64,000 bases of DNA from Minisyncoccota bacterium. GTDB lineage: Bacteria > Patescibacteriota > Minisyncoccia > Phycocordibacterales > Phycocordibacteraceae. The number at the start of each line of letters is the position of its first letter. Positions within the stretch are counted from its first letter, which is position 1. The notes under the pieces are model-generated. The model had not been told where the DNA came from. It did no database searches and was given only the letters and a program-made list of their open reading frames with translations. Both the position numbers and the translations under genes were made by a program. Positions 23,685 through 52,096 of this stretch are shown here, one piece after another. The DNA lies in NCBI GenBank assembly GCA_035438505.1, contig DAORIM010000001.1, positions 7,808 to 71,807 of the forward strand. The letters are read 5' to 3'.

Positions 23685-24094
23685 GGGGGTGACCGGCTTT
23701 GACGGTCCTGTACCTTGAGAGACGTGCGACGCGGTGGAAGTGTGCTGACCACCTAAAAACGTACACACAAATACTTGCAAAGAACACTCTTGCAAGCGTG
23801 AAGTCCCCATACTTCGGTACTAAGGACTTTGCGTTCGCTTACGCGTAAAAGCTTTGCGCTTTCGCCTAAGCGACGTTCATATATTCCCGTTTCTTCAGGG
23901 GGATGTATGGGCGGAATCTTCTGAAGAATCGGTATCAAAGCTCTCCTAGGCTTTGGCTTAAAAGACAGGATTAGGCAGGAGCGTTTTCGCTGACGTTCCT
24001 ATTCTCCTGCTGAAACTTCAACGTTAGCTACGCGTCGTAGACTCGCTCTGAAGACGGGATTCGGACCGGAGTTCGACTCTCCGCACCTCCACCT
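23685..24094 (+). ncRNA. ssrA: transfer-messenger RNA (tmRNA, ssrA)
   Basis: 5' end gggggtgaccggctttgacgg pairs with 3' end cacctccacc giving a tRNA-Ala-like acceptor stem with G3:U70; 3' T-arm ccggagttcgactctccg; internal Ala-rich tag-like frame ...gac ttt gcg ttc gct tac gcg taa; directly downstream of smpB. Confidence 0.65.
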
Positions 24095-25753
24095 CATTTC
24101 ATCGGAAGGCACGAAAGTGCCTTTTCGTGTTTTATCTGTTGGCTTTTTCGAGGTTCTAACTTTTTCTAGAGTTGCAGAGAGGTCCCTTCCTTCGGTTAGA
24201 ACTTGAATTGGCTTCTCTAGCTGTAAAGTCAGTATTCCCTGCTCTAAAACATGTTCCGTACCAAGAGCTGCAATTATTGACCTTCGCTTTTGTAAGCCGC
24301 CCTCAAGAAACTCCTCTCTTGCTCTCTCAGCGAAGGTTAGAAGTCGTTCTGCATCATCAATCCAGGTCTTGAACCTCACCTCAGTAGCTTCAATGCGGTT
24401 TTTAAGCGCTCTTTCATCATCTTCAAGGCGACTGCGCTCAGTTTTATATTCATCTGAACCAATGTCTCCAACTAGTCTCATTTCGAAAAGTCTTTGGAGT
24501 CTTTCAGCCACATCCTTTCGTCTCAGTTCATGAGCATAAAGTATGGAGTCCTTGTCAGTAGCCTCCTTTTCATATTCCTTCTTGAGTTCCGCAATTGCCC
24601 ATGCGTGGAATGCAGGGGCAATTTTTATCGATGATAGAAAGTCTATAAATAGTTCCTCAAGCTTCTTCTCTTCAATTGCCTTCTGCTTGCATGTACGGAT
24701 TTTTCCAGTGCATCGGTAATACGAGTACTCATGGATATTGCCATTCTGTTGCCGTTTTATCTTCTTCTCACACGTGATTCGTGCACCACATCCTCCGCAA
24801 CGCATGAGTCCGACATAAGTGTGCATGTGCTTCTGTGGTTTGGCTGATTTGCGATCAATTATCTGCTGAACCTCATCAAACTGCTCCTTGGTTATCATTG
24901 GGGTGTGCAGACCTTTGTACCATTGGGCTATTTCTGGGTACTTTGCGGGGTATAAGTACCATCCATAGTAGAAAGGATTCCTTAATATGTTGTAGAAGCC
25001 GTGGAGTGAAATGGGCCTCGAAGAAGGGTTTCTTCTGGTCTTCTTGGCCTTTAGCCCCCACTCATTAACAGCAAGGTCATATACCTGATGAGGGGTGTAC
25101 TGACGCGAGAGTATTGCATCGAAGATCTTGCTAACGATTGTGAAGTTTGGCTCGTCAACCTCGCACTGTTCCGGACGGTCATCACGGTATTTTGTGTTTC
25201 TGTATCCTATTGGAGCAAGACACGGCCTGAAGCCTCTAAGTGCTGCTCCTCCTTGACCACGCTTAATATTTTCCCTTAGCTTTCGTATGTACTCGGTTGC
25301 CATTGCTGTTTCAATGGTTCCCATTAGCGAATTCTCTTCAGCAGAGTATTCCCGACTTGGTGTCTTAATGAGCTTTATCGCTCCAGCAATACGCAAGTCT
25401 CCGATTTTCCCTCCTTCCTCGAGATTTCTTGCAAGACGATCATAGTCCCAGCATAAAATTGCATTGGCTTTTCCAGCCTTGATGAACTCGACCATCTCCG
25501 TGAATACGGTGCGTTTGCCTGAAGTAGCAGCCGATTTCTCTTCCGAGAATTCCTTCACTACGTTATAGCCTAAATCGAAGGCTATCTTTCTCATCACACG
25601 GAGCTGGTCTTGTGTCGATTCTACAAACTCATCCTTATCTCTAGCTTCAATCGAGCGACGAGCATAGATAACGAACTTAAAGCTCGCTCTTTCATCCTCC
25701 CTCTTTAGTTTTTGGTTGTATCCAACGTCCGACATATTCTTTTTTGAAAGCAA
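23999..25753 (-). CDS. large serine recombinase (site-specific integrase)
   Basis: N-terminal resolvase catalytic domain (FVIYARRSIEARDKDEF...TQDQ), recombinase domain, Cys4 zinc ribbon (CGGCGARITC...YYRC) and coiled coil; C-terminal ~30 codons run antisense through the tmRNA 3' end. Confidence 0.8.
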   Translation of the reverse strand: MLSKKNMSDVGYNQKLKREDERASFKFVIYARRSIEARDKDEFVESTQDQLRVMRKIAFDLGYNVVKEFSEEKSAATSGKRTVFTEMVEFIKAGKANAILCWDYDRLARNLEEGGKIGDLRIAGAIKLIKTPSREYSAEENSLMGTIETAMATEYIRKLRENIKRGQGGAALRGFRPCLAPIGYRNTKYRDDRPEQCEVDEPNFTIVSKIFDAILSRQYTPHQVYDLAVNEWGLKAKKTRRNPSSRPISLHGFYNILRNPFYYGWYLYPAKYPEIAQWYKGLHTPMITKEQFDEVQQIIDRKSAKPQKHMHTYVGLMRCGGCGARITCEKKIKRQQNGNIHEYSYYRCTGKIRTCKQKAIEEKKLEELFIDFLSSIKIAPAFHAWAIAELKKEYEKEATDKDSILYAHELRRKDVAERLQRLFEMRLVGDIGSDEYKTERSRLEDDERALKNRIEATEVRFKTWIDDAERLLTFAERAREEFLEGGLQKRRSIIAALGTEHVLEQGILTLQLEKPIQVLTEGRDLSATLEKVRTSKKPTDKTRKGTFVPSDEMRWRCGESNSGPNPVFRASLRRVANVEVSAGE

Positions 25754-26156: not shown

Positions 26157-26339
26157 TCACATCTTTTCGAGGTCATACCTTAGCTCTTCAAGACGCTCCT
26201 TGGGGTCCCCATAAATGGCTTTGTAGAGGTTCAGTATGAGCAAAGCCTTGCGGTGGAGTTCCTCATCCGTTAGCTCTTCCCCAAATTCTTGGAGATAGAT
26301 TTGGTGGAAGTCGTTGAGACTGTTAGCGTCCAGTGCCAT
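26157..26339 (-). CDS. hypothetical small protein
   Basis: 60-aa acidic ORF, stop overlaps the primase-helicase start (translational coupling). Confidence 0.3.
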   Translation of the reverse strand: MALDANSLNDFHQIYLQEFGEELTDEELHRKALLILNLYKAIYGDPKERLEELRYDLEKM

Positions 26340-28279
26340 TAGAAGATTGGCTCAGTGTCCTCCTGCACGAAGTTCACCTCTTCAAGGTGGTACTTGTTCT
26401 TCTTCCCCTCCTTGTAGACTGAGAGCGAACCTTCCTCGACCATGCTTCGCAGAGCCTCTCCGATGTTGCGGCTACCCACACCAGTCTCCTCACGGACGGC
26501 CTGGATGATTTCCTCATTCGTATAGTCCTGAATTTGGAGCATGGCGGTGATTGCATCGCGAGCCTCTTCCTTCTTAGTAGTTCGCTCATCGATACTCTCG
26601 TAGCGAAGCTCTACCGGACTTCCGATAACATCTGGGTCTTGAGCAAGTACTACACGAAACTTATTCGTGTTCCGTCCACGTCTCGACTTAACGTGTTCAA
26701 CTTCCAGATTCTGTTCGGACGTCGTGCAGTCCTTCTTCTCCACGGTAATGTGTGAATCGAGACGCCCAGAGTATGCTGACGATCCGCGAAGGCTCTGTGC
26801 TCCTCCACTAGAAGCACCCATGCCGCTTTTACGATGGTGGTGAATGAACAACACAGTTGCTCCTGCTTTCGTGAATCTTTGCATGGCCTCAAGTACCTTT
26901 TGCGCTCCCTCGGCAGAGTTCTCATCTTGGGAGTGCATGGCTGCGAATGGGTCAATGATAACCAAAGCAATATTCTGCTCCTTCACAGTCTGGAGCAGAG
27001 CCTCCATGTCTTCCTTCTTGTCTACCTTGAAGCCGTTAAGGCTGTAGAAGTAAATGGGCAGGTCTTCCGAATAGCCCATCACCTCCATGCGGCGGCGTAG
27101 CTCCCACGCTCCCTGTTCTTCGTCCACGATGAGGACACTGCCTTGCTTCGTCACGAAGTTATCGAGGAAGCTTTCTCCAGCAGCCACACACTTGGCCAAG
27201 TGGAGGAGAATCCAACTCTTGCCGCAACCTGGATGGCCGCTCAGCGCAGTAATGCCTTTCTCCGGTATGAGTCCGTACACGAGAAACTCAGGACGTTCTG
27301 ACTCCGGCATGTTGAGAATGGAAGAGACTGACAGAAGCTGTCGTGTTGGAGTCGTATCAGACACTTCCTTATCAACATAGGTAGTCCCCTCACCTCCCTG
27401 GGCATGTTGCTTCTGGGCGATACCGCGAAAGATAGACTTCACCTCACTGTCTGGAAGAGGTGGATCGTTCGCTTTATCGTTCCAAGCAAGTACCGTAGGA
27501 AGTACGAAAGTGTCCCAGTCTTTGGACGGCAAGTGGTGCAGGAGCTTGCCGACATACTTCACGGTAGAGTCGTGCCTGTTCCCCTCCTTCGCTCCTCCAA
27601 CGATAGCCTCCCAATCTGTAGCCTCCTCATACTTGGCTTGTCGCCTCTCTTCGATGTCTGCAAGCCACTTCGGCATTTGCGGCAGGTCTTCCGTGATATC
27701 GAGAGGCTTAATCCATTCGTACGCTTTGCCCGTCTTCGGATGAATTGAAGGAGGGACAACCACATAACCTCCATCAGCCTTCATGTCTCCATGAATGCCG
27801 TATGCTCCGAGCGGACCAGATTTAATCTCGTCCACGAGGTATGGATAGTCGTAGAAGTAGTGCCAGCCTCCTCCGCCCGTCCTGCTAATCGCAGTTGGTG
27901 GCAGTTCGTACTTAGACGGGTCTTCATCCGATTCGAGGTCAAGCACGGCAAGGCCATGAACATATCCCGTAATCATCCCCAAGCCAGTTATTCTGTCTCC
28001 GTAGGTCTTAAACCACTGACGCATCTCATCCGGCGTGGGTGCCTTACCCTGCTGAAAGTCCTTCCATGATGGAATGACTGGGACCTTGCCATTGAGCGGG
28101 ATGACCGTTCTGCAGTCATCTAGGTATGCGAGTGCTGCTTCTAGCAATGTTTCAGAATGGGAGGTCATCTTCTGTCTTGTTATCGGCACCCTCATCCTGC
28201 TTCTCGATGATGCGCTGGATAAGATCTGATACCACTTGAGAGTTTTCCTCTCCCCAGAGAGCAGGTACCAGCACCACAC
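26339..28279 (-). CDS. bifunctional primase-polymerase (Prim-Pol) / RecA-like (RepA/AAA_25) replicative helicase
   Basis: N-terminal Prim-Pol motifs (LDLESDED acidic triad region, GGGWHYFY); central P-loop ATPase SGHPGCGKSWILLHLA with VLIVDEEQG Walker B; C-terminal winged-helix-like tail. Confidence 0.7.
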   Translation of the reverse strand: MWCWYLLSGERKTLKWYQILSSASSRSRMRVPITRQKMTSHSETLLEAALAYLDDCRTVIPLNGKVPVIPSWKDFQQGKAPTPDEMRQWFKTYGDRITGLGMITGYVHGLAVLDLESDEDPSKYELPPTAISRTGGGGWHYFYDYPYLVDEIKSGPLGAYGIHGDMKADGGYVVVPPSIHPKTGKAYEWIKPLDITEDLPQMPKWLADIEERRQAKYEEATDWEAIVGGAKEGNRHDSTVKYVGKLLHHLPSKDWDTFVLPTVLAWNDKANDPPLPDSEVKSIFRGIAQKQHAQGGEGTTYVDKEVSDTTPTRQLLSVSSILNMPESERPEFLVYGLIPEKGITALSGHPGCGKSWILLHLAKCVAAGESFLDNFVTKQGSVLIVDEEQGAWELRRRMEVMGYSEDLPIYFYSLNGFKVDKKEDMEALLQTVKEQNIALVIIDPFAAMHSQDENSAEGAQKVLEAMQRFTKAGATVLFIHHHRKSGMGASSGGAQSLRGSSAYSGRLDSHITVEKKDCTTSEQNLEVEHVKSRRGRNTNKFRVVLAQDPDVIGSPVELRYESIDERTTKKEEARDAITAMLQIQDYTNEEIIQAVREETGVGSRNIGEALRSMVEEGSLSVYKEGKKNKYHLEEVNFVQEDTEPIF

Positions 28280-29916: not shown

Positions 29917-30029
29917 AATTTAAGAGGCTAAGGATTATATGGATTATTTAGCCGTCTTAGGGCTATGTGGAAAAATATATAACAATATTGAAAATTTGGA
30001 TATTGGCTTCTTGGATACACGCTTTGTGT

Positions 30030-30251: not shown

Positions 30252-30253
30252 AA

Positions 30254-30724: not shown

Positions 30725-30726
30725 AC

Positions 30727-34600: not shown

Positions 34601-36106
34601 CTCTCGAAGAACGGCATCGAAGATAATGGCCGTAATAGTGTGGCTCTTACCAGTACCAGGAGGTCCCTCAATGACTAGATACCGGCATGAGTCTTTCCTT
34701 ATTGCAGAGAGAATTTGAAGCTGTTCTGCATTAAGTGGGATAGGGCTTGAAACTACAAGCCTCTCGGTTATGTCAGTATCATCCCATTCTTTCTCTACCT
34801 CTGGATTACAGGGTTCAGGGTTGTTATAGAGGAAGTCTCCAAGCAGCTTGTTGAAAGATTCGGATAGCAATCCCCCCTCCTCGCCAAGCTGTTTAAGAAT
34901 GTCCTCGTAGTCATTTACAAGAGCCTCATCAGACTTATCGAAGAGCGCTATATAGCAGGAGTTGGTAATCCGTACAGTTGGCCCTTTCGCCACCTGGGCT
35001 TTTTCCTCAACAAATGAGACATTACCCTTCGCTTCAAAGAAGTTGATTATCTCCGTTAATATGACGGAAAGAACTTCTTGAAGGTCAGTCGTGTGCTGAG
35101 CCAGATAAATGATTCGCTCTGTAATTGTTTGAAGGTTCCCCTTTTTCCCACTAAGAACATTGTTCTCCTGGACTATATATTCCAGAGCCTTCTTGTTTAT
35201 GTATATTTGTGAATCAAACTCTAGCGAAAGCACCTCATCCTGTCTCGTTATACTTATCGGCACGTAAAATATTGGGTACTTTGCGTTACCAAAAGCAATA
35301 TCGCCAAAATAAAGGTAGAAGTCCTGCTTTTCTAAAATGCTCCTATTGCGAGACATCTCAAATATCTCCGCAAACAAATCGGCAACCTGTAGACTCTCAA
35401 AAAAGGAATTGAGTGTGCTCTTAACTTCTGAGAGTGCGAAAACGCTCTTTAGTTCTTTCTCAAGATTTACTTTCTCCTTTGCAATAAAAAGATTAAGGGT
35501 CTCAGAAACCCTGCTCTCCACTAGACGCAAGAGCACCTCGGAAAGCTCCTCTTCAACCAGAAAAATATTCCCTTCATCCCCCAATGTGAGGTTCTGTAGT
35601 GGCTTATCAAGCTTTTCAATAAACGGGTCTACCAATTCGACACGGATTGTTGCTCGTGCTGAATCAATTGCCGTATTTAAGGCAATATCGTATTCCGTTT
35701 CGTAAAGTGTACCGAGCCTCTCAATATCCTCCGCGATATTCTTTATTATTTTGTTTATCTGAGCAGCACTTATTTTTTCGACCTGAAGCTTGACCAAGTC
35801 GAGTAAATTCTTAGGTAGCTTTGTTTGATAAACACCCTTCTCTATCTTACTGAGTACATCTCTATCAAAATTCTTATTAACTAAAGACCAGACTAGCTTA
35901 TTGAAAGTTTCGTACTTTTGAAGATTCAAACCGACAAGTAAGTTGTCATTGTTCCTAAATTTAATAGCCCTACGCGGCAATTTCTTCTTGTGAAAATCGG
36001 ACTCCAAGAAGTCCATGAAGTACTTTGCTACATCCTTAAAGAAAAGGAGTCCGTTCTCGGCCGATGGAGTAGGAGTTGTTTGCATGTCTTGAGTTAATAG
36101 TACCAA
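31544..36106 (-). CDS. giant SF1 (Upf1/DNA2-like) helicase with N-terminal DUF4011-like region, C-terminal restriction-endonuclease-like (DUF559/Vsr-like) domain and topoisomerase-type C4 zinc ribbons
   Basis: 1520 aa; Walker A GPPGTGKSHT, LIIDEASQV (AAA_11), TFDTCQGEERDIIYY (AAA_12); C-terminal HKIVIEYDGFKEHF nuclease-like core; CPKCKEV...CRQCKG and CPRCSSRMILRSGRLGKFYGCSRFPYCRGT zinc ribbons; AT-rich codon usage. Confidence 0.75.
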   Translation of the reverse strand: MVLLTQDMQTTPTPSAENGLLFFKDVAKYFMDFLESDFHKKKLPRRAIKFRNNDNLLVGLNLQKYETFNKLVWSLVNKNFDRDVLSKIEKGVYQTKLPKNLLDLVKLQVEKISAAQINKIIKNIAEDIERLGTLYETEYDIALNTAIDSARATIRVELVDPFIEKLDKPLQNLTLGDEGNIFLVEEELSEVLLRLVESRVSETLNLFIAKEKVNLEKELKSVFALSEVKSTLNSFFESLQVADLFAEIFEMSRNRSILEKQDFYLYFGDIAFGNAKYPIFYVPISITRQDEVLSLEFDSQIYINKKALEYIVQENNVLSGKKGNLQTITERIIYLAQHTTDLQEVLSVILTEIINFFEAKGNVSFVEEKAQVAKGPTVRITNSCYIALFDKSDEALVNDYEDILKQLGEEGGLLSESFNKLLGDFLYNNPEPCNPEVEKEWDDTDITERLVVSSPIPLNAEQLQILSAIRKDSCRYLVIEGPPGTGKSHTITAIIFDAVLREQSVLVLSDKKEALDVVENNITQTINKVRNAENFQNPILRLGKTGNTYAKILAQGTYQDIKTHHHAVRKNHEVIVGNIEKSINSLREDLEAEVVACEDIDIQEVKELVALESSINTEELTFDINEALPFEEAPIEISEARSSLNLLKGAYDSEVGKELFEIIGVNSKDIGTVEDYENVIRFLSLASESIEKLKDIYKEKLDSIAIFDSFSKKEIEKLADFIKEYESLKAFLVGFLFEKKKVGEVDLRFRQAFRTPVAMAHQEIQRLKDAYAIFDYIHSLGEEVNTKLSTGLDYVGIVHRLLKEEGGTEYLKEFVKAGEETTYLRDFTQKYTRTAEKAGLDFAEFSSLFSNLIISSDEFLFDKQLRYLSLRQKLTKEFSEIPDLNYALRKKNIEELVITQVAYLLDGRLIDFYEHNRTDAEALRAVIKNKQKFPKEQFRKLQKAFPCILAGIRDYAEYIPLEEEMFDLVIIDEASQVSIAQAFPALLRAKKVLILGDKKQFSNIKAAQARSDTNREYLNMLERSFKENVSTEGTKLVKLEKFNIKTSILEFVEFISNYRTQLRKHFRGYKEIISYSNKYFYQESLQVMKIRGKNIDDVIKFSYIEAAPEDEVYPNSNKAEVEFIISELERMKEEGQEMSVGIITPHTNQQKLLVEMINKLPERDFYFEKLDLKIMTFDTCQGEERDIIYYPMVASEHSDRLWGIFIKDLNNVDVEEDGQIKAQRLNVGFSRGKECVHFVLSKPLDKFNGSIGDALRHYFNLLEEAKKEKGIEETDQKSGKEAEVLNWFYQTSFWNDNKERIEFVPQFEIGKYLKQLDPTYSHPAYKVDFLVSYQSEQGREHKIVIEYDGFKEHFKDVDVINEFNYQNYYSDEDVYRQKVLESYGYKFLRINRFNVGENPIETLNQRLGRLVKEESGMNPLLHTIHETVQGLQNGKMKVCPKCKEVREDQDFRDSSLITGYGRFCRQCKGKRIIERANKPEPVLSDKVCPRCSSRMILRSGRLGKFYGCSRFPYCRGTRNT

Positions 36107-36222
36107 GTTTCTTCATAATTTAACTGGGTTCTTAACATACCACTTATCCAAAAAGGCCTTATTTAAAGGCTCTCTTTAGATTTCTTTGAGGTTTTCTTTA
36201 GAAAATATCCAGATTTTCTATA

Positions 36223-36741
36223 TCAATTCTCTGGCTTCCAGGTACCTAAAACAATGTAGTAGAAGAGGCGACGTCCGAATTCAAAAAGAAGAGCTACTGC
36301 AATTAAGTAAGCGACACTATAGAGCAACACTTCAATCCAACTACCCCTTGTTAGGGCAATATCTTCAATCTCTACTGAGGGCAGAGTGTCATTGTTATAT
36401 TTCGCGTCCAGTATTTCTCTTGGTGAACTTCTTACCTCTTCCTCCCCGCACGCTATCCGTAGTGTATATCGCTGAGCATTGCTAAGGGATTCAAGGCCAA
36501 GACTCGAGCTGTACCCTGAGAGATCGATTCGCTTATCTCTAGAGGCTTGGAAAGTAGAATGGTTCCCTCCTGTGCAAATAATCCTATGGTCCACGACGAG
36601 AGAGTCAGGCTCATTCTCGTCATAGATAGCTATGAGCATTACCAGAGTCATGATTCCAAAAAGACCGATATAACCGACTTTCAAAAGTCGATACCACCAC
36701 TTTGAATTCAGGTCTGCTAATGAATGAGGCTGTTTGTTCAT
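36223..36741 (-). CDS. hypothetical membrane protein
   Basis: Two TM helices (N- and C-terminal) flanking a soluble domain; 172 aa. Confidence 0.35.
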   Translation of the reverse strand: MNKQPHSLADLNSKWWYRLLKVGYIGLFGIMTLVMLIAIYDENEPDSLVVDHRIICTGGNHSTFQASRDKRIDLSGYSSSLGLESLSNAQRYTLRIACGEEEVRSSPREILDAKYNNDTLPSVEIEDIALTRGSWIEVLLYSVAYLIAVALLFEFGRRLFYYIVLGTWKPEN

Positions 36742-36879
36742 ATCCTTGATAACTAGGATACCAAATTTCTACTTGTTAAAGCTTGTAAACGTTTATAAAC
36801 GAAAGAGGTTCAAACCAGAGAGGTGGTTTTGACGTCGTTATGATTGAATCATTGGCTTTTACGCTTTGACACCCCCTAC

Positions 36880-37020
36880 CAGCTATCCACCAAATGTAAA
36901 AAATGTGAGGCTCTGCTTTCCAGTAATGAGGTTCTAACCTCGTGAAGCCACCTCCACCGACATAGAACTATATGGCGACATATAGAAGCATAGGAGAACC
37001 GCCTCATGGGCGGTTTTCTG
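36880..37020. repeat. island repeat unit A (GAGGTTCTAACC core + downstream hairpin)
   Basis: atccaccaaatgtaaaaaatgtgagg...gaggttctaacctcgtgaagccacctccaccgacatagaactatatggcgacatatagaa then hairpin gaaccgcctcatgggcggttttc; near-identical 3' half at 37705-37770, homologous 5' half at 41176-41235. Confidence 0.7.
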
Positions 37021-37046
37021 ATTGTCTAACTACGCACATATCATTC

Positions 37047-37607
37047 CTACTCAAAGCGATGGAATGTGAACCATTTCATGGTACCTACCGGAATTCCATA
37101 CACCTCTTCAATCACAGTTCTGGGACTTCGGAGCTCAACCGAATTCCAATCCAGCCCGAGTGAGTTTGCTGTTGTCTTTAGCGCATCTTCGCTGGGACCC
37201 TCCAATTCGACATATGTTGGTATCTTCGGCCATGTATCGATATCCACCACCACGTCACCCATATGAAACGTGTACCGCTTCTTCTCCTGATGTCGGTACG
37301 CAACATAGCCAAGGCGTTCTAAGAGTGCCTCAGCGGCATCAGCGTTATCTACCTCGAACTCAATCTCTTCCGTACCTTCAGCGGTTATTTCTGTCCGGTG
37401 CTTATAGGTGAGCTTCGTTTTCCCATCACACGTACGCAGTCGGAGAATTTTATGCGCACCGTCGCGCCAGGTCATCGCATTGTCATAAATTATGCGTTCT
37501 TGAAGGAGGTATTCTCCCTTGTCCTCAGCGCCTAACTCCTCGAGTTTCTTGATAAGTTCCTCCTTATCGATCTCGAGAAACCTGACCTCGATTTCTCTGT
37601 AATTCAT
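37047..37607 (-). CDS. CYTH-domain protein (CyaB/thiamine-triphosphatase-like)
   Basis: N-terminal YREIEVRF (ExExK) motif and further acidic residues typical of CYTH triphosphate tunnel enzymes; 186 aa. Confidence 0.7.
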   Translation of the reverse strand: MNYREIEVRFLEIDKEELIKKLEELGAEDKGEYLLQERIIYDNAMTWRDGAHKILRLRTCDGKTKLTYKHRTEITAEGTEEIEFEVDNADAAEALLERLGYVAYRHQEKKRYTFHMGDVVVDIDTWPKIPTYVELEGPSEDALKTTANSLGLDWNSVELRSPRTVIEEVYGIPVGTMKWFTFHRFE

Positions 37608-37649
37608 GTCGTTAGTATAACCCTGGCTGATGGTGGCCCGAAACTATCT

Positions 37650-37795
37650 CCTACCACCCATCCACGATCCGTAAGAAGTTAGGCGAGCTGTCCTGAATCA
37701 GACAGGTTCTAACCTCGTGAAGCCACTTCCACCGACATAGAACTATATGGCGATATATAGAACAGTAGAAACCGCCTTTGAGGCGGTTTCTACCT
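37650..37795. repeat. island repeat unit B
   Basis: ...caggttctaacctcgtgaagccacttccaccgacatagaactatatggcgatatatagaa then hairpin gaaaccgcctttgaggcggtttc. Confidence 0.7.
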
Positions 37796-37816
37796 ATCTC
37801 TCGTATTGCATTAGCT

Positions 37817-38113
37817 CTACAGGTACGCCGTTTCTTCAATAAACGCCACGACAAGGCCCGGTGACGGAGAGTTCGGCTCTATAATCACTTTCTTCCCCTT
37901 TAGGGCTGCTGATAAATCATCCACTTCAAACGCAACATGCGGTGTCGTGAGGACCAGGGCGGGATACGTAGCATCAGGGTCAAACCGCATCCATTGAAGT
38001 CGGTATGGATTCGCTTCATGATCTGTAACTGTCATCTTGAGGTGAGCAAGATACATTTCATCTTTTTGTATTTCTTTCGTGGGGATCCCTGTGTGGTTGT
38101 ACTTCACCATCAA
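37817..38113 (-). CDS. VOC (glyoxalase/bleomycin-resistance) family protein
   Basis: Single beta-alpha-beta-beta-beta module, PHVAFEVDDL motif; 98 aa. Confidence 0.4.
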   Translation of the reverse strand: MMVKYNHTGIPTKEIQKDEMYLAHLKMTVTDHEANPYRLQWMRFDPDATYPALVLTTPHVAFEVDDLSAALKGKKVIIEPNSPSPGLVVAFIEETAYL

Positions 38114-38218
38114 AGTATACCAATTGCTTACGAATACCGGTTAACGCATCAAACCGCCGGAATTGGCGGTTTGATGCAACTGACAGTCCAGGGTGCCATC
38201 CCTACACGTAGCTGTTTG

Positions 38219-38881
38219 CTACATAGTGAGGTAGATCTCTCCTGCTAGTGTTTTGATTCTGTACGATTCCATTTTCGGTCCAGGCATGCCGGGCGTTCCA
38301 GATGGCATGCCAGGGAGTGCGATTCCTGATATCTCGGGTTTCTCGGTAGTGAGTGTAGCGATGACTTCGAGAGGAACGTGTCCCTCTACCACATACCCAT
38401 CGATGATAGTCGTGTGGCAGCTTTCAAGCTCTGGTCCTATGCCGTGCGTTGCTTTAATTGAAGCCAGTTCTTCGTCAGATACATTATTAACTACGACATC
38501 TGCCGACTGTGCTTCCAGTTCCGCAATGAAGCCGCCACAGCAGCTACACCCTGGCGACTTGTATACCTCCATACGCTTGCCGGCGAGTTCAGGATGATTG
38601 TCAGCGACAGTCTTTCGTTCAGGCTGCTGTGCGAAGAGCGCCAGCGACCCACTCACAAGAACTGCAGCAACAAGCCCCGCCATGATTGGTCCCCTTAATT
38701 TCTTTTGCCTGCCGTACAGGAACCAGCCGATGGCAACACCAACTACTGCCCCTATAAGGAGCATCATGGCTAATGAAAGTAGGTCATTCCCCACTGCTTC
38801 CGGATGGTCTCCGGTATGTGCAAGCGTGATGAACGGGAGCGCGTACGAGACTGCGCCTCCCAGTAGTACTTTTGCTTTCAT
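38219..38881 (-). CDS. DUF411-family metal-binding protein (CopG-like copper-resistance associated)
   Basis: N-terminal TM anchor; KSPGCSCCGGF...SCHTTIIDGYVVEGHVP signature of DUF411; start set at MKAKVLLGG. Confidence 0.7.
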   Translation of the reverse strand: MKAKVLLGGAVSYALPFITLAHTGDHPEAVGNDLLSLAMMLLIGAVVGVAIGWFLYGRQKKLRGPIMAGLVAAVLVSGSLALFAQQPERKTVADNHPELAGKRMEVYKSPGCSCCGGFIAELEAQSADVVVNNVSDEELASIKATHGIGPELESCHTTIIDGYVVEGHVPLEVIATLTTEKPEISGIALPGMPSGTPGMPGPKMESYRIKTLAGEIYLTM

Positions 38882-38882
38882 G

Positions 38883-39434
38883 CTACTGAGGCCAGACTGA
38901 AAGCCAGTCGCGCATCGTCTCAATCTCGCGCGTCTGCGAGGAGACAATATTCTTAGCAAGCTCCTTCATCTCAGTGCGTGAGGTACCGGACTCAAGCATC
39001 TGCGCCATCATCACCGCCATCTCGTGATGGACGATCATTTGCGCGATGAACTCGCGATCGAAGTCAGATGCAGCTTGGAGGGCATCTACATCCCCTTCCA
39101 TTCCCTGCATGTGCATACCACCATGGCCCATGCTTTCGGTCGGTGCCCTATCGAACCATTCCTGGTACCACTGCTGCATCTTGCCGATCTCATCCGTCTG
39201 CGCGTCGATGATCTCTTGTGAGAGCGTACGCACGCGCTCATCCTTTGAGCGTTCAAGCGCGAGCTCTGCCATCTCGATCGCCCCTTCATGGTGCGGAATC
39301 ATCTGCTCGATAAAGTGAGCGTCTACATTGCCCATACCCATGTTATTACCCGGCATGCGTGGTGCGAATGTGTAGCCGAGGACGAGTCCCGCGATTAGTG
39401 CGACTCCCGCTATCAGTACTGTTTTATTCTCCAT
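38883..39434 (-). CDS. DUF305-family protein (copper-resistance associated, periplasmic)
   Basis: Signal/anchor then duplicated HH motifs (FIEQMIPHHEGAI..., FIAQMIVHHEMAV) and Met/His-rich linker MGHGGMHMQGMEG. Confidence 0.7.
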   Translation of the reverse strand: MENKTVLIAGVALIAGLVLGYTFAPRMPGNNMGMGNVDAHFIEQMIPHHEGAIEMAELALERSKDERVRTLSQEIIDAQTDEIGKMQQWYQEWFDRAPTESMGHGGMHMQGMEGDVDALQAASDFDREFIAQMIVHHEMAVMMAQMLESGTSRTEMKELAKNIVSSQTREIETMRDWLSVWPQ

Positions 39435-39469
39435 AGTTGATACTTATCTAATAAGCAAACTAAGGAATG

Positions 39470-39859
39470 CTATGGAGCCTTCGGGTTCAAAATGCCTTGC
39501 GAGAATAGGAGGGTATACAGAGGAACGGGTACTGGTTGAGCCGAGGGAAAAGCCCGATGTCTTTTCCTCGGCGGATGAAGAAGCAAAAGTCCAGACACGA
39601 GCACCGGCACGACAAGCAAGAGCGTGATGGAGTCGAGTGTAGGCTGTGCCTGCGAAAAGCTGCCGATCAAAAGGTCCATGTCGCTGTACGACATGGTGCA
39701 AAGCGACATACCAGCTACCGACACTTCGCATCCGGAGCCATGGTCTCCGTGTACAAGGGGAAAAGCGAAGGAAAAGGTGCCGATATACAGCAGTGCTCCG
39801 AGAAGGAGGAGGCTCGTAATACGTCTTAGCCCTAGTCCCGACATGCGCATAGTGTACAC
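39470..39859 (-). CDS. hypothetical small membrane protein
   Basis: Two hydrophobic segments, HGDHGSG and Cys/Met residues; sits between DUF4396 and DUF305 genes; overlaps an alternative longer ORF in another frame, so coding status uncertain. Confidence 0.3.
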   Translation of the reverse strand: MYTMRMSGLGLRRITSLLLLGALLYIGTFSFAFPLVHGDHGSGCEVSVAGMSLCTMSYSDMDLLIGSFSQAQPTLDSITLLLVVPVLVSGLLLLHPPRKRHRAFPSAQPVPVPLYTLLFSQGILNPKAP

Positions 39860-40318
39860 CTAGTGCCCATGGTGAGCATGCACAACCGCATGCCCCTTCC
39901 CTCTGGCAATGAGCCAACGGTTGACCGGAAACGCGAACATCCCCGCGACGACTAGCGCAAGCACCATGCTCCCCCAGAACAACGGGCTCGTAAGTCCAGC
40001 ATCCATAGCGCCTGGAATAAGGAGCATGACCGCATTGTCGACAACCTCCATGATTGCTATAGAGACTGTGTCTGCAGCGAACGCTAATCCAATGGCGGCA
40101 CCGAGTGTCATCCCATGCCGTAGGAGCGGAACCATCGTGAAGAGATACCCGAAGAAGAAGGCGAGTACCACAGCGAGCAGGATAGTTTGCCCTGTTCCCC
40201 ACCCAAGTGCCGTACCGATAACAAGACCGAGTACCTCGCCAGTCGCGCAGCCAGTTAGACAGTGGAGTGTGGCACTAAAGGCTACTTTGTTGAGGCTCTG
40301 CCCATGATTGTGATCCAT
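39860..40318 (-). CDS. DUF4396-family membrane protein (metal-homeostasis associated)
   Basis: HCLTGCATGE motif at first TM helix, four TM segments, His-rich C-terminus HAVVHAHHGH. Confidence 0.6.
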   Translation of the reverse strand: MDHNHGQSLNKVAFSATLHCLTGCATGEVLGLVIGTALGWGTGQTILLAVVLAFFFGYLFTMVPLLRHGMTLGAAIGLAFAADTVSIAIMEVVDNAVMLLIPGAMDAGLTSPLFWGSMVLALVVAGMFAFPVNRWLIARGKGHAVVHAHHGH

Positions 40319-40319
40319 A

Positions 40320-40586
40320 CTAAGCGCGCTTTAGTGAGTAAACCTTCAAGATCTCCTTCGTTGCCTTACCTTCCTGTCCCTTTTTCATCTGCCCGATGAC
40401 GCAGGTACCAAGATGGCTTTCCAGGAGCTGGTCTTCTACGCCTGACAGCGCACGCTTCACGGCCGAAGTCTGCGTGATGATATCAACGCAGTAAATATCC
40501 TCTTCAATCATTTTCTTTAAACCTCGTACTTGTCCCTCTATGCGATTTAGTCGGTTTAATACCTGCTTCTTTGCTTCTGTCTTCAT
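40320..40586 (-). CDS. csoR: CsoR/RcnR-family metal-sensing transcriptional repressor
   Basis: 88 aa; LNRLNRIEGQVRGL helix, conserved Cys (YCVD) and His (ESHL, GTC) ligand positions typical of copper-sensing CsoR. Confidence 0.8.
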   Translation of the reverse strand: MKTEAKKQVLNRLNRIEGQVRGLKKMIEEDIYCVDIITQTSAVKRALSGVEDQLLESHLGTCVIGQMKKGQEGKATKEILKVYSLKRA

Positions 40587-40593
40587 GCACTCA

Positions 40594-40614
40594 ATATACC
40601 CCCATGGGGTATAT
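40594..40614. promoter_or_regulatory. CsoR-type operator (GC-tract inverted repeat) in divergent promoter region
   Basis: atataccccCATggggtatat: arms ATATACCCC / GGGGTATAT match the known CsoR operator style (TACCC...GGGTA); located between csoR (-) and the DUF305 membrane gene (+). Confidence 0.6.
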
Positions 40615-40630
40615 TGTCAAAGTCTACACA

Positions 40631-41116
40631 ATGAGTATCCTAAACACTATGGATCATCACAAAAATTACGGTCGTCTTCTTCTCATGTTCGTCCTGCACC
40701 TCATTGCCATGTACGTGCTCATGTACGCCATGGTGGATGCCTTCGGAAATATCCACCCAAACCATAATCAGTTCTATATGGCGGCGCTCATGGCAGCGCC
40801 AATGGTGGTACTCGAACTTCTCATCATGGGTTCTATGTATCCGAAAAAGAGACAGAATGTGGGGATTATTGCAGTTGGTGTATTCCTGCTAGTTTGTTCA
40901 TTCATTTTCATCAGACAGCAGGTTGCCATTGGAGATGAGCAGTTTCTTAAGTCCATGATTCCTCACCACGCTGGGGCGATACTTATGTGCGAGAAGGCAC
41001 ACCTAGAAGATCCCCAGATTAAGGAACTCTGCGGGAATATCCTTTCGGGTCAGCAGACAGAGATTGAGTGGATGACGACCAAACTCCAATCTTTAGAAAG
41101 AGGTTCTAACCAATAG
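40631..41116 (+). CDS. DUF305-family membrane protein
   Basis: Three TM helices then KSMIPHHAGAILMCEK DUF305 motif; start at ATG 40631; last six codons (gaa aga ggt tct aac caa) are a copy of the island GAGGTTCTAACC motif. Confidence 0.55.
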   Translation: MSILNTMDHHKNYGRLLLMFVLHLIAMYVLMYAMVDAFGNIHPNHNQFYMAALMAAPMVVLELLIMGSMYPKKRQNVGIIAVGVFLLVCSFIFIRQQVAIGDEQFLKSMIPHHAGAILMCEKAHLEDPQIKELCGNILSGQQTEIEWMTTKLQSLERGSNQ

Positions 41117-41169
41117 TTCACGTCCGGACTCAAAATACGTGCGCTGATTGGCTTTTGACCTCTTTCCCC

Positions 41170-41290
41170 ACTACCACTCATCCACCACTTTTAAGAAATG
41201 TGAGGACGTGCCTTGCAAGAGTGAGGTTCTAAGCTCATGAACCCAATTCCACATGGTTTCATGAAAAGGCCCTAACGGGCCTTTTTGTAT
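41170..41290. repeat. island repeat unit C
   Basis: atccaccacttttaagaaatgtgaggacgtgccttgcaagagtgaggttctaagctcatgaacccaa then hairpin aaaaggccctaacgggcctttttg. Confidence 0.6.
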
Positions 41291-41362
41291 ATACACGTCC
41301 TTATCGAGGGGAGGTTCTATTATTCTGCAGCAACCTCTCAGAATTCCCCCACCTCTCGCCTC

Positions 41363-42034
41363 TTAAGATTTATCGAGCTGGGCCAAATGATGCGAGATGT
41401 CCTCTTCTGAGGTGACTTGGTAGGCAATACCTCCAACAGCTCTAAAGGTCTCACAAGCTCCCGTGGAGTCATCTATAAGGATGCTACGTTCTACTGGGGC
41501 TGAATATTTGTTTATGTAATCTCGAAATACTTCCCCTTCGTTATCACTTTTGAACTTACCTTCGTAGTAAGAGTTACTAATATCGTCGAAGTAGTCTTTC
41601 AACTTCAAGGCAGGGACAGTAAATCGGGCGAAACTATCCATATTCACAGTTATCAAAATAGTTGTATATATCTCTCGAAGATTCCCTACAGTTTCAAGGA
41701 CATTTTTTGAAACATTCATAGTTTCTGCATCCCTTACAAAGACTTCTCATATCTCTTCGAATGGAATTCTTAGCTGCTCAGACAGGAACTGATTTACTTC
41801 TTCTGCAGTATGTTTCCCTTTCATCCACTCCTCTGCATAGCTTTTCCTTTCTTTAAAAAGGAGTGTTTGTACCTTCTCATACTGTTCTGCAGGAAGACTT
41901 CGCCAAAACCGATCATGGCAAAGTGTTCCATCAAAATCTATAAAAAGAATCGGTTTCATTTGAGTATCAAGAATATTATACAATATACTCGCTCTAGGTG
42001 GATAAACTGCTGAGATTTTCAGCAGTTTATCCAC
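41363..42034 (-). pseudogene. HAD-superfamily hydrolase interrupted by an in-frame TGA (two ORF fragments in the same frame)
   Basis: Fragment 41747-42034 has motif I ILFIDFDGTL; fragment 41363-41719 has SILIDDSTG (motif IV-like); they are in the same frame separated by TGA at 41744-41746 and 8 sense codons. Confidence 0.5.
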
Positions 42035-42166
42035 CTAGAGTTATCCTGTCAAATTCATTGCTTTTACAGGTAAACCTGTGTACATTTACTAATAGCTCAT
42101 CTACCTAGTCGCAGAAGGAGTAAAGAGACCGCCATTTATGTGGCGGTCTCGGCTTTTATACTGGTA

Positions 42167-42658
42167 CTAAATACCGTGAAAGCTCTTATATTCCTTTTCA
42201 AGCTTCCTTTTTGTGTGCGAATAAGTGACCGGGTACGCAGTCCAAGGAATTAAGTATTCTTTTCTCTTTGCGAGAACTACCAGATACTCCCAGTCTCCGA
42301 AACAGATGCAAATCCTACCTTCTGTAACTCCGTCCTTATTGACTCTCGTGTTTTCCCAAACTTTTACATATTCAGGGTAAGAGTCGCAATCATCGATAAT
42401 AGGCTTTGGCCACTTTATCCTTTCGCATCGTGATTCATCTTTAACCCGCTCAACCTCTATCTTCCCTTCTGATATGAGGTGCCAAAATGTGGCCTCCTTT
42501 CCTTCTACTTGAGGATGCTTTTTAAGACCAAGTCGAGTACCGCGAAATACTGGTCTTTTGTGCACAAAATCTGCTTGGAAAAGTTCGTAAACGGCCTCTA
42601 AATAAACATCCCAGTCGTTTCCATGGTCAACTAGCCTGATTAATTCTGGTAACTTCAT
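42167..42658 (-). CDS. hypothetical protein (partner of DUF3800 gene)
   Basis: 163 aa, 11-nt gap to upstream DUF3800 gene; no family recognised. Confidence 0.4.
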   Translation of the reverse strand: MKLPELIRLVDHGNDWDVYLEAVYELFQADFVHKRPVFRGTRLGLKKHPQVEGKEATFWHLISEGKIEVERVKDESRCERIKWPKPIIDDCDSYPEYVKVWENTRVNKDGVTEGRICICFGDWEYLVVLAKRKEYLIPWTAYPVTYSHTKRKLEKEYKSFHGI

Positions 42659-42669
42659 GATGAGAGAAA

Positions 42670-43371
42670 TTAGCCCTCAGAGTGCCAGACAAAAAGATTG
42701 AACTTATCTTCACTAGGCAGTGTCGACTTTGTGAGAGAATATTTTGACCTCTCCTGAATTCTTTCAATTACTCGCTGTTTTGCTTCGCTAGATTTAATGC
42801 CTCGATTTAGGTGAGAGACAGCGCCTATTAGCAGATCCGCTAATTGCATAATTCCAACCTCCTCTGATCTTATGATCTGCATATTTTGAACAATACGCGA
42901 ATTAAAATCATACATATTTCTTCCCAACACCTTATGTAGTTGTTTAACCTTTGCGCCGCCACGAGTATCTTTTATATCAATATAAATGTCGTAGGTATCC
43001 TGAGGACTTAAAACGGCTTTTATCATTGTGAAATACATCCTGTAGTAAAAGTCGTCATGACTCATCTCGAACTTTTGGTGATCGAGAGCCATCTTATTAG
43101 GCACAACAAGTCCCCGAAAATGCAGGTCTGGCGAATCGAAGAAATAATCTACAAGATGCAGATACATCGGAAGTTTCTTTGGAGAAATCTTGGTCCACTT
43201 GATTTCAGTCCAAGGAGATAGCCCGTATTGCGTCTTTATCTCTCTTATTCGGGTCAAAATCTCCTGCGCTGAATCCTTTGGACACCACACAGCACCCAGC
43301 ACCATCGCTGTTTGGTGATCATTTTCGAGATGACAGCTCTCATCGCAATACAGGTTGTATTTAACGGCCAT
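42670..43371 (-). CDS. DUF3800-family protein
   Basis: N-terminal YNLYCDESCH motif (DUF3800 hallmark D-E-S), 233 aa, AT-rich. Confidence 0.55.
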   Translation of the reverse strand: MAVKYNLYCDESCHLENDHQTAMVLGAVWCPKDSAQEILTRIREIKTQYGLSPWTEIKWTKISPKKLPMYLHLVDYFFDSPDLHFRGLVVPNKMALDHQKFEMSHDDFYYRMYFTMIKAVLSPQDTYDIYIDIKDTRGGAKVKQLHKVLGRNMYDFNSRIVQNMQIIRSEEVGIMQLADLLIGAVSHLNRGIKSSEAKQRVIERIQERSKYSLTKSTLPSEDKFNLFVWHSEG

Positions 43372-43621
43372 TGGGATAATGATACAGGAAATCCCATCTT
43401 GTTGCTGGTTTTAGATAAGGAGGTTCTAATCTCCCAGCCCAGTTCTGGGTACCCCGTAGGCACGTATTGGCTTTCGTGTACTCATGGTGATACCCGACTC
43501 TGGTTCGTTTGATGAGCTCCTGAATAGAAATGTCTCCTTTAAAGAGGCCTGGACTCAATTCGTTGCGACGCATAAACCGGATTAGGAACGTCTTTTCATT
43601 TGCCCATAGCGCATACAACAA
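43361..43621 (-). CDS. hypothetical small protein at distal island edge
   Basis: 86-aa ORF spanning the GC transition; weak. Confidence 0.2.
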   Translation of the reverse strand: MLYALWANEKTFLIRFMRRNELSPGLFKGDISIQELIKRTRVGYHHEYTKANTCLRGTQNWAGRLEPPYLKPATRWDFLYHYPNGR

Positions 43622-51476: not shown

Positions 51477-52046
51477 TTATGCGAGCCCCAGGATCTTCGC
51501 GACCTCTTCTGAGACCTCTTCAGGGGTACGCTCCCCGTCAATATCCACGCAAGCATTCCCCTTCCTAAAGACCTCTAGGGCTTTCTCCGTAAAGCGATTG
51601 TATTCGTCGAGACGCATCTGCACACAGTGATCATCAGCACGGCCAGACTCCCCTTTGCGTGAATCGAGCCTGCGATGCACCTCTTCATCCGATATCGCGA
51701 TATTAATAACCGTAAACGGACGTTCCAAAAATTCCGACGCAGCGAAGATAAGCTCTGCTTCTTCGATCTTTCTGTTGAATCCGTCGAAGATAACGCTTTG
51801 CGCATCAGGATGCGAGAGTGCAATGCGTAGGTACAAGTACTCAACAAACCAAGGAGGCGACAACAGCCCCTGATCCATTTCAAGCCTTGTTCTTCGCCCT
51901 GCTGGAGTGTCTTCAGCAGCAATGGCGCGGAACTGGTCTCCAGAGCCGTACATCGGCCACCCAGTCCGTGCAGCAAGGATCTTGGCCTGCGTGCCCTTTC
52001 CGCTACCAGGCTTTCCGAGAAAGAATACCGTCTGCGGCGATTCCAT
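51477..52046 (-). CDS. adenylate kinase paralog (second NMP kinase directly after secY)
   Basis: P-loop GKPGSGKGTQAKILA, GSGDQFR NMP-site, short LID; ~30% identical to the downstream adk; start set at MESPQTV. Confidence 0.7.
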   Translation of the reverse strand: MESPQTVFFLGKPGSGKGTQAKILAARTGWPMYGSGDQFRAIAAEDTPAGRRTRLEMDQGLLSPPWFVEYLYLRIALSHPDAQSVIFDGFNRKIEEAELIFAASEFLERPFTVINIAISDEEVHRRLDSRKGESGRADDHCVQMRLDEYNRFTEKALEVFRKGNACVDIDGERTPEEVSEEVAKILGLA

Positions 52047-52096
52047 ACTGATTACTCTAGCATTAACGAGCAAAGCCTCCCGGAGGAGGCTTTTTT

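Follow-up and report, generated by a model that had tools for sequence, protein, structure and literature searches.

In a 64,000-nucleotide stretch of the genome of a Minisyncoccota bacterium (assembly GCA_035438505.1, contig DAORIM010000001.1, positions 7,808 to 71,807; hereafter the window) we found an intact copy of a compact mobile cassette of three genes: gene A for a DUF3800 protein of the RlfA type, gene B for a coupled 19-kDa protein of the RlfB type, and a gene for a small RNA of about 65 nt. The cassette is cargo in the last segment of an island at the transfer-messenger RNA (tmRNA) gene of this bacterium of the candidate phyla radiation (CPR). Elsewhere it resides on phages, plasmids and islands, and it is frequently embedded in restriction-type systems. 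The anatomy of the cassette and its family assignment we regard as practically certain. The protein pair is, judged by homology, the PADLOC candidate system PDC-M04 as well as the counterpart of rlfA-rlfB of phage P1, and it is therefore already known as a candidate and not new. The convergent small RNA is apparently undescribed, in a comparison that covers the motifs registered in Rfam. The parts of the cassette in the window are the following:

42670..43371, minus strand: gene A, 233 aa, start MAVKYNLYCDESCH; RlfA-like DUF3800 protein, PADLOC PDC-M04A
42659..42669, minus strand: spacer of 11 nt between A and B, the operon junction
42167..42658, minus strand: gene B, 163 aa; RlfB-like 19-kDa protein, PADLOC PDC-M04B
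42093..42160, plus strand: small RNA gene, about 65 nt, convergent with gene B and ending about 8 nt before the B stop codon

The RlfA-RlfB gene pair

An initial annotation of the window had described a DUF3800 gene with an N-terminal YCDES motif and, after a gap of 11 nt, a partner of 163 aa, and both open reading frames (ORFs) were confirmed at these positions. Proteins 100% identical to A and B are recorded for a metagenome-assembled genome of Candidatus Paceibacterota. In 47 homologous loci the distance from the A stop codon to the B start codon lies between -29 and +16 nt, most often at -4 (an ATGA overlap), a spacing indicating a translationally coupled operon. The linkage was followed from both sides. 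Among 57 genome loci from many phyla that were fetched through B alone, an A homologue lies directly upstream on the same strand in 47; the remaining 10 comprise four loci cut by a contig end and six N-terminally truncated remnants of B without A (L023 among them). Fetching through A alone gave 161 loci, 81 viral and 80 metagenomic, and with a profile hidden Markov model a B-family ORF was recognized directly downstream of A in all 152 that leave room for it, one of these ORFs being split by a stop codon. Seventeen loci that had appeared to carry A without B were discarded as exceptions, since the profile model detected a divergent B in every one of them. The linkage of A and B is essentially obligate in both directions, and the linkage statistics place the pairing far beyond chance.

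The PADLOC search that the initial annotation had recommended assigned both proteins to one system. Gene A matches the PDC-M04A model (PDLC04353) with E 4.1e-96, residues 1-231 corresponding to profile positions 1-228 of 232, and gene B matches the PDC-M04B model (PDLC04357) with E 3.4e-60, residues 2-161 corresponding to profile positions 5-157 of 162. The only other PADLOC match of the pair is a weak one to PDC-S51, and no ToxIN-type model was matched. The 145 PDCs ("phage defence candidates") were predicted from their embedding within defence systems already known (guilt-by-embedding; Payne, Hughes, Fineran and Jackson, bioRxiv 10.1101/2024.01.29.577857).

A tblastn search with B found homologues in RlfB of phage P1 (34% identity, 99% coverage, E 3e-18), in RapB of phage P7 and in an unannotated ORF of Bifidobacterium phage Bbif-1, and in an alignment the RlfA protein of P1, which is annotated as a DUF3800 protein, is 48% identical to gene A. 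The P1 genes stand in the same order, A then B, and overlap by 1 nt (rlfA 51740-52444, rlfB 52444-52908). They lie directly downstream of repL/oriL, the rlfA promoter carries a C1 operator (Orlf), and the name "replication-linked function" reflects this position only. The pair has been known since the annotation of the P1 genome, with rapA-rapB as its counterparts in P7, and in a CRISPR interference screen both rlfA and rlfB were non-essential for plaque formation (PMC10695390). Relatives of gene B are found on 102 plasmids, mostly P1-like, and at least 204 IMG/VR contigs encode a relative of gene A. Our search of the literature on PDC-M04, DUF3800, rlfA/rlfB and follow-ups of the drum and skipping-rope motifs found no functional study.

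Gene A matches the Pfam family DUF3800 (PF12686) with 41.8 bits against a cut-off of 21 (E 2.3e-10). Its DUF3800 signature is complete, consisting of the N-terminal DE motif and the C-terminal QxxD motif, both of which have been described for the family (PMC7736814). Residues D10-E11 (in YCDESCH), D132/D135 (in DIKDT) and Q176xxD179 (Q176-L-A-D179) are invariant or nearly invariant across the family. The predicted structure shows an RNase H fold with four catalytic carboxylates, and gene A is predicted to encode a nuclease of the RNase H2 fold in which the D-E-D-D acidic set is intact. Published remarks on DUF3800 as an RNase H-like nuclease are in agreement (PMC7736814, PMC10910872, PMC12669027). 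In sequence, no RNase HII family was matched in Pfam or NCBIfam, and identity to RNase H2/RNase HII (Thermococcus 1io2; human RNase H2A 3puf) is only 9-14%. Compared to RNase H2, gene A has additional C-terminal helices and conserved Cys/His residues (C9, C13, H14).

Gene B has no match in Pfam or NCBIfam, and among the sequences of the PDB no relative of either A or B was found. The B family counts 1,738 cluster representatives at E <=1e-3, nearly all of them stand-alone proteins of 150-180 aa, with the conserved motifs KxHP, GKEATFWH, RCERIRW and WTAY. The model of gene B (mean predicted local distance difference test score, pLDDT, 95.2) is of the alpha+beta type: its helices precede an antiparallel sheet of four strands, after which comes a C-terminal helix. 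The structure prediction that had been proposed for both proteins gave A an RNase H2 fold and left B, in spite of its very confident model, without a convincing relative.

The convergent small RNA gene

About 90 nt following the B stop codon are conserved at the same position in dozens of unrelated loci across phyla, and a small RNA motif was found in 181 of 197 such flanks. The layout at each locus, on the strand opposite to A and B, is a TTGACA-like -35 element, a TAnnnT -10 element, a 5' hairpin, a linker, a terminator hairpin and a U-tract. The 5' sequence, (A)GCUCAUCUAC-CAUGU-GUAGAAGGAG, is near-invariant; it is followed by a linker of 3-6 nt and a GC-rich hairpin with a conserved CCG/CGG core, and the U-tract lies beside the B stop codon or overlaps it. 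The initial annotation had viewed the locus as a two-gene module, which holds for the conserved and tightly coupled protein pair and overlooks this third linked component. Its elements in the window are:

42063..42092, plus strand: promoter-like region; -35 element TTTACA, 42063-42068; AT-rich -10 region TTACTAAT, 42085-42092
42096-42120, plus strand: 5' hairpin, GCUCAUCUAC-loop-GCAGAAGGAG
between the two hairpins, plus strand: linker UAAA
42125-42150, plus strand: terminator hairpin, also found independently by a terminator pattern scan
42154-42157, plus strand: U-tract, 3' of the terminator hairpin

Among 154 unique sequences, 99 have TTGACA with at most one mismatch, with a peak at -36/-35 from the G of GCUCAU, and TAnnnT is located at -13 to -8; by these elements the small RNA is served by a promoter of its own, of the putative sigma-70 type. 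The promoter in the window is less canonical than that at most homologous loci.

The secondary structure is supported by a structural alignment of 94 non-redundant sequences, for which RNAalifold gave two hairpins with compensatory double changes in 15 of 18 pairs. When this structure is imposed explicitly, 96.2% of the cells are paired, compared to 82.5% in column shuffles (none of 500 reached the observed value) and 40-55% when the partners are slid against each other. G-U pairs are frequent (54 of 94 sequences at pair 43-72, 26 of 94 at pair 11-20), and since these would be C-A mismatches on the opposite strand, the functional strand is the one convergent with B. The copy in the window folds as predicted (minimum free energy -26.3 kcal/mol, z -4.4). 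The covariance model built for this RNA (R1) has one strong match in the 64 kb of the window, at 42093-42171 on the plus strand (66.6 bits, E 8e-21), the next best match reaching 13.7 bits.

Beyond the window, the model finds one strong match per locus in 204 of 228 loci, with scores of 34-84 bits overall; of the 24 loci without a match, 22 end before the site and two have a disrupted B. All matched RNAs abut the B stop codon and converge with B, except for a single inverted copy (L076, 5282-5364, plus strand). This copy is co-oriented with A and B, lies about 100 nt away and has its own near-consensus promoter (TTGACA-17-TATACT) and its own terminator, which shows that the small RNA is an independent transcription unit. 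In P1 (NC_005856; L058, 4458-4531, minus strand) the RNA scores 58.3 bits and runs from about 52977 to 52904 on the complement strand, between rlfB and pmgF, behind the promoter TTGAAA-17-TAGATT; no feature is annotated there in the P1 record. In the six remnant loci the small RNA and the 3' part of B are kept, and A and the N-terminus of B are gone. Across a range that extends from CPR bacteria to phages of enterobacteria and bifidobacteria, conservation of the 5' hairpin exceeds that of both proteins, and the hairpin lies outside the region in which the RNA overlaps the A-B mRNA. A variable segment usable as a guide is absent, no variable stretch being longer than the linker of 3-6 nt and the terminator loop.

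Rfam searches over the whole window (at gathering thresholds), over 41-45 kb (E <=5), over the 131 nt at 42060-42190 (E <=10) and over 24 homologous loci gave no family matching the small RNA. The DUF3800 motifs on record in Rfam include -I, -V and -IX, and only one locus matches any of them, at another position: in a metagenome-assembled genome of Candidatus Anammoxibacter (L020) a DUF3800-V RNA (6900-6995, minus strand, 40.7 bits; gathering score 37.4) is situated downstream of B, at a distance of about 420 nt and within an ORF-free stretch of 1.2 kb. The new small RNA is present right after B in this locus as well, and thus two different DUF3800-type RNAs occur at one locus.

Some loci deviate in other ways. 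One of them (L158, 4481-4563, minus strand) has a second, orphan small RNA with 37 bits and compensatory CUCG/CGAG changes, about 300 nt beyond the first, and weaker extra matches of 22 and 18 bits were seen in L099 (6688-6751) and L036 (9820-9887). In two P1-like IMG/VR loci (L096, L098) B is truncated after about profile position 85, possibly by an insertion within rlfB, and no small RNA is present in the next 1.1-1.5 kb.

Several other readings of the conserved element were tried and rejected. A small ORF within the RNA does not hold, as the AUG of the loop is missing from the copy in the window and from others. Mimicry of a Shine-Dalgarno sequence by GAAGGAG was considered as well; the middle G, which belongs to the internal loop, is A in about one fifth of the aligned sequences, P1 included, so the complementarity to the 16S tail is not conserved. 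Antisense pairing of the type I kind was rejected because the 5' domain of the RNA has no conserved pairing site on its own A-B mRNA (RNAduplex in 24 loci: mean z -0.04 relative to shuffles, scattered positions). Finally, the cassette is not a transposon with the conserved 3' element as its end: the upstream neighbour often abuts A (-4 to +7 nt) and leaves no space for a 5' end.

Genomic neighbourhoods and the tmRNA-gene island

The neighbourhoods of the cassette were surveyed in 48 genome loci by clustering the four nearest ORFs on each side and annotating the representatives. HsdS is found in 13 of the 48 loci, almost always as the immediate upstream gene, HsdM in 8, and HsdR downstream in 7. 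A DUF1156 methylase upstream (5 of 48) and a PLD-SNF2 helicase downstream (4 of 48) mark systems of the Hma type. Altogether, neighbours of the type I restriction-modification (RM) or Hma type are present in 21 of 48 loci, nine of which are flanked on both sides, and the guilt-by-embedding signal of PDC-M04 is thereby reproduced independently. A copy in Burkholderia adjoins a prophage integrase and a DUF4238 gene.

These results bear on the suggestion of the initial annotation that the pair could be a source of a new defence system, a suggestion that was to fall if DUF3800 homologues neither co-occurred with the partner nor were enriched near defence genes. Gene-neighbourhood analysis found the contrary, namely obligate co-occurrence and the RM/Hma association. 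The defence-type association is thus borne out by the PDC-M04 match, by the 21 loci above and by the helicase of the island described below, and it is the novelty that is lost, the pair being already present in PADLOC-DB and in P1.

In the window the cassette occupies an AT-rich segment, as had been noted initially, between the third and fourth copies (units C and D) of a repeat, next to a split HAD-like gene; the repeats and the split gene were both confirmed. The G+C content is 0.405-0.42 at 41-43 kb, compared to 0.54-0.57 in the backbone and flanks, and it is back to 0.545 from 44 kb on. The repeat core AGGTTCTAANCTC occurs four times in the window, always on the plus strand, at 36929, 37704, 41224 and 43421 (chance expectation 0.32), and the repeat units, starting at 36872, 37647, 41167 and about 43405, align with the 3' end of the tmRNA gene. 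Four such repeats at 36929-43421 are the signature of successive integrations at ssrA. We regard 23685-43460 as a composite island at ssrA, to which, as the repeats imply, at least four segments were added in tandem in this CPR genome. The last segment, of about 2.2 kb, holds the A-B pair, the split HAD-like gene and the small RNA gene. The main features of the island outside the cassette are:

23685..24094, plus strand: tmRNA gene (ssrA); the low-GC region starts at its 3' end
23999..25753, minus strand: large serine recombinase, island gene
26339..28279, minus strand: PrimPol-AAA_25 primase-helicase, island gene
30254-36106, minus strand: superfamily 1 (SF1) helicase, 1520 aa, with AAA_11/AAA_12, a REase_MTES_1575 domain and a Top1-type zinc ribbon
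41167..41252, plus strand: repeat unit C, a decayed copy of the tmRNA 3' end (att-type remnant) with its core at 41224-41236; proximal boundary of the segment
41363..41719 (C-terminal half) and 41747..42034 (with the FIDFDGTL motif), minus strand: HAD-like hydrolase gene split in two ORFs, the HAD matches being sub-threshold in each
43405..43460, plus strand: repeat unit D, tmRNA-3'-like, the last of the copies and the most decayed, with its core at 43421-43433; distal island edge, just upstream of gene A

The SF1 helicase matches the PADLOC models PDC-S37 (E 2.5e-43), MkoC, MkoA and Hhe, and is thus Mokosh/Hhe/PDC-S37-like; ahead of it are a TerB-like protein with a partial PDC-S48 match and a TnsA-like endonuclease. 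With a helicase of this type the island does carry a defence flavour, and the helicase locus may be a second defence-type locus on it. Other island genes encode CYTH and DUF411 proteins. The split HAD-like gene has a sub-threshold match (E 0.048) to the HAD domain of "Swiss Army Knife" RNA-repair proteins. With the cassette a defence-type element is documented in a CPR (Paceibacterota) genome; to our knowledge, little is known of CPR immunity beyond a few systems.

A few further observations were made in the same region. At 41992-42040, with the small RNA promoter region on one side and the start of the broken HAD-like gene on the other, lies a perfect inverted repeat of 22 bp (CTCTAGGTGGATAAACTGCTGA, 5-nt spacer) that occurs only once in the window. 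It overlaps hexamers resembling promoter elements on either strand and may serve as an operator or as a site of recombination. Matches of Rfam microRNA models at 41983-42049 are spurious, as they are produced by this palindrome alone. The preceding island segment (37733-41252) contains genes of the metal-homeostasis type: a DUF411 protein at 38219..38959 and, as seen from translations only, ORFs with repeated HH motifs at 38883..39434 and 40571..41116 and a small ORF resembling a CsoR/RcnR-type repressor at 40320..40586. The tmRNA region is closely preceded by a tRNA-Ile gene (anticodon TAT) at 21049-21125 on the plus strand.

Possible function and comparison with known systems

We lean slightly towards a role of the cassette in conflict or defence. 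As the overall best explanation we propose, tentatively, an RNA-restrained nuclease module that serves abortive infection or defence. The 5' hairpin is near-invariant across phyla and has neither a pairing site on the mRNA nor a guide segment, which argues for base-specific recognition by a protein partner, presumably the product of gene A. According to this proposal, the small RNA would be made constitutively and one or both proteins would bind its 5' hairpin in a base-specific manner. The bound RNA would hold the RlfA nuclease inactive, with RlfB as a partner or adaptor. Infection would then remove the short RNA by depletion or displacement, as transcription is shut off or RNA decays, or would bring competing substrates such as the RNA:DNA hybrids of phage replication. 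The freed RlfA would cut the RNA in hybrids (primers, R-loops) or another nucleic acid, and replication of the invader would stop, possibly at the cost of the cell. The order of loss in the six remnants, which keep the RNA and have lost A and the N-terminus of B, is the one expected if the proteins are harmful and the RNA protective. DUF3800 proteins are described as effectors or accessories in type VII retrons and at Cas12a2/a3 loci (PMC7736814, PMC10910872), and DUF3800 genes are known to associate with at least 11 unrelated structured RNAs (PMC5737381). The specific mechanism, in which the RNA acts as the inhibitor, we nevertheless consider rather doubtful.

A number of observations weigh against an RNA-restrained nuclease. 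The argument from decay rests on a small sample of six loci and depends on how the loci were fetched. A literature search on PDC-M04/RlfAB found no experimental report of defence, toxicity or RNA binding. The C1 operator at the rlfA promoter of P1 predicts that the proteins are made in lytic growth and not in the lysogen, and expression of this predicted kind would be unusual for prophage-borne defence. In contrast to the known RNA-antitoxin (type III) loci, the cassette has one RNA unit only, placed downstream and convergent, and this RNA could be an activator instead of an inhibitor. Additionally, some loci, a copy in Anaerolineales among them, are surrounded by housekeeping genes; together with the C1 operator of P1, such copies are the chief difficulty for a simple reading as defence.

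Alternatively, the RNA could be a positive, integral subunit, that is, a scaffold, a specificity element or an activator of an RlfA-RlfB-RNA complex. In such a ribonucleoprotein effector the invariant loop and the internal loop would recognize a conserved target (such as an RNA or DNA structure of host or phage) and the RNase H-fold subunit would need the RNA, which would make it a fixed-sequence analogue of the RNA-dependent nucleases of the Argonaute or OMEGA type. The extreme conservation of the 5' hairpin across phyla and the obligate co-occurrence of RNA and proteins would suit it, as would the repeated pairing of DUF3800 genes with structured RNAs in either orientation (PMC5737381). However, the RNA is a conserved hairpin, a short linker and a terminator, with no programmable guide segment, no candidate target was identified, and the retention of the RNA in remnants after the loss of A is easier to understand with a protective RNA. 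We regard the effector complex as unlikely. The convergent RNA could also act only in cis: it shares a bidirectional terminator with the A-B mRNA, their 3' ends overlap, and in about one third of the loci, judged by motif offsets of less than about 35 nt, the last codons of B contain the terminator hairpin, so that the RNA might merely tune the stability or termination of the rlfB/rlfA mRNA. Type I toxin-antitoxin loci such as par (Fst) with RNA I/RNA II and bsrG/SR4 offer precedents for such antisense tuning. This is in our view quite unlikely, because the 5' hairpin, where conservation is highest, is located past the terminator of the mRNA and is near-invariant from CPR to P1 where pure antisense needs no conservation, and because the A-B mRNA has no other conserved site complementary to the RNA. 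The extent of the overlap with B varies between loci, and the inverted RNA of L076, about 100 nt off, cannot overlap the 3' end of the B mRNA in this manner.

We give little credence to two further possibilities. An RNase H-like enzyme with an RNA could serve priming or primer processing in the replication of phages and plasmids instead of immunity; RNase H is known to process RNA II at the ColE1 origin. The P1 cassette, next to repL/oriL and controlled by C1 together with lytic functions, would fit such a replication accessory, and so would the predicted RNase H2 fold of A, the frequency of the cassette on phages and phage-plasmids, and the PHROG annotation "replication protein"; both A and B match PHROG families. 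However, many chromosomal copies are wedged between hsdS and hsdR or lie within Hma-type systems without any replicon, the Anaerolineales copy stands among housekeeping genes, and in some P1-like plasmids rlfA-rlfB is swapped for other cargo (PMC6906374). It is just as improbable that B is an endoribonuclease toxin of the RelE/colicin-D type (BECR fold) with A and/or the RNA as the antitoxin. Conserved basic and aromatic residues on consecutive beta strands of B (R105, R115, Y125, R132, T140) would be in line with such a toxin, but Foldseek with the B model returned nothing significant (best E 0.037, template-modelling score <=0.27), hhalign against RelE gave a probability of 0.3%, and none of the Pfam toxin families was matched by 70 members of the B family. 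Moreover, an enzyme of 233 aa whose active site is intact would be atypical as an antitoxin.

The RNA-restrained nuclease can be placed within a broader proposal, according to which RlfA-RlfB and the convergent RNA are a new RNA-dependent immune effector whose fixed-sequence RNA of about 65 nt switches a nuclease of the RNase H2 fold off, as an antitoxin, or on, as a cofactor. We consider this a possibility on the unlikely side. If true, such an effector would be unrelated to CRISPR, Argonaute, OMEGA, retrons and ToxIN, and it would give a general explanation for the dozen different private RNAs found beside DUF3800 genes of bacteria and archaea. In any case, three loose ends turn out to be one object: the PADLOC candidate PDC-M04, rlfA-rlfB of P1 and the adjacency of DUF3800 genes and RNAs noted in 2017. 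The small RNA extends the latter phenomenon to the RlfA subfamily and to phage P1, and since P1 carries all three parts, the question of DUF3800 and its RNAs becomes testable in E. coli by standard genetics. When defence-finding tools score PDC-M04 as two proteins, they overlook a component that cloning of the system probably requires. A construct that stops at the B stop codon would truncate or remove the RNA gene, and false toxicity or false negatives could follow.

The closest known systems are PDC-M04 and the P1 pair. Both proteins match the two PDC-M04 models over their full length, with identical order and adjacency; PDC-M04 is, however, defined by two protein genes, whereas the present cassette also has a conserved small RNA gene, and the copy in the window lies in a segment of an ssrA island and not within an RM system. 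The P1 locus has homologous proteins in the same order and the same convergent small RNA right after rlfB. It differs in its setting: the P1 copy is under a C1 operator beside the lytic replicon, and the copy in the window lies in a bacterial island without an adjacent replicon gene.

The concept of DUF3800-associated RNAs applies to the small RNA through its covariation, its adjacency in 204 loci and its terminator. Weinberg et al. (2017) describe the motifs DUF3800-I to -XI, drum and skipping-rope as structured RNAs beside DUF3800 genes, in either orientation and often with a Rho-independent terminator of their own (PMC5737381). The present RNA matches none of the Rfam models of DUF3800-I to -XI (RF02964, RF02968, RF02969 and others). 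Its architecture of one hairpin plus a terminator is simpler than that of the other DUF3800 RNAs, and it belongs to the RlfA subfamily, which also has the partner RlfB.

Loci of the ToxIN type carry their RNA as an array of tandem repeats, upstream of the toxin gene and in the same orientation, and this array is processed by the toxin, whose fold is a different one. The logic proposed here is like that of type III toxin-antitoxin and abortive infection systems (ToxIN, CptIN, TenpIN), which are likewise small mobile cassettes of plasmids, phages and islands in which a small constitutive RNA restrains a nuclease until infection. The present cassette nevertheless falls outside type III, as it has two proteins and a single-copy RNA that is located downstream in convergent orientation. 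It does not belong to the type I toxin-antitoxin systems either, since the proteins are of the soluble type with 233 and 163 aa and no conserved pairing site exists beyond the shared terminator.

PrrC is an anticodon nuclease embedded in type I RM loci, and RloC is grouped likewise. At many homologous loci the cassette shares the niche of PrrC/RloC, between hsdS and hsdR and at 0-10 nt from the upstream gene. By analogy, this niche suggests a back-up role to restriction; PrrC is itself cited as an example of an embedded system (bioRxiv 10.1101/2024.01.29.577857). There is, however, no relationship to PrrC/RloC in sequence or fold and no ATPase or anticodon-nuclease domain, and the copy in the window is not RM-embedded. 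The cassette is also distinct from type VII retrons, which combine a reverse transcriptase with DUF3800: no reverse transcriptase is present among the neighbouring ORFs and no retron RNA appeared in the Rfam scans, and gene A keeps the Q of the QxxD motif, unlike the DUF3800 protein of retrons (PMC7736814). Finally, the RNA-guided RuvC and PIWI nucleases (OMEGA, Argonaute) work with a variable guide stretch, in contrast to the small RNA described here, whose sequence is fixed.

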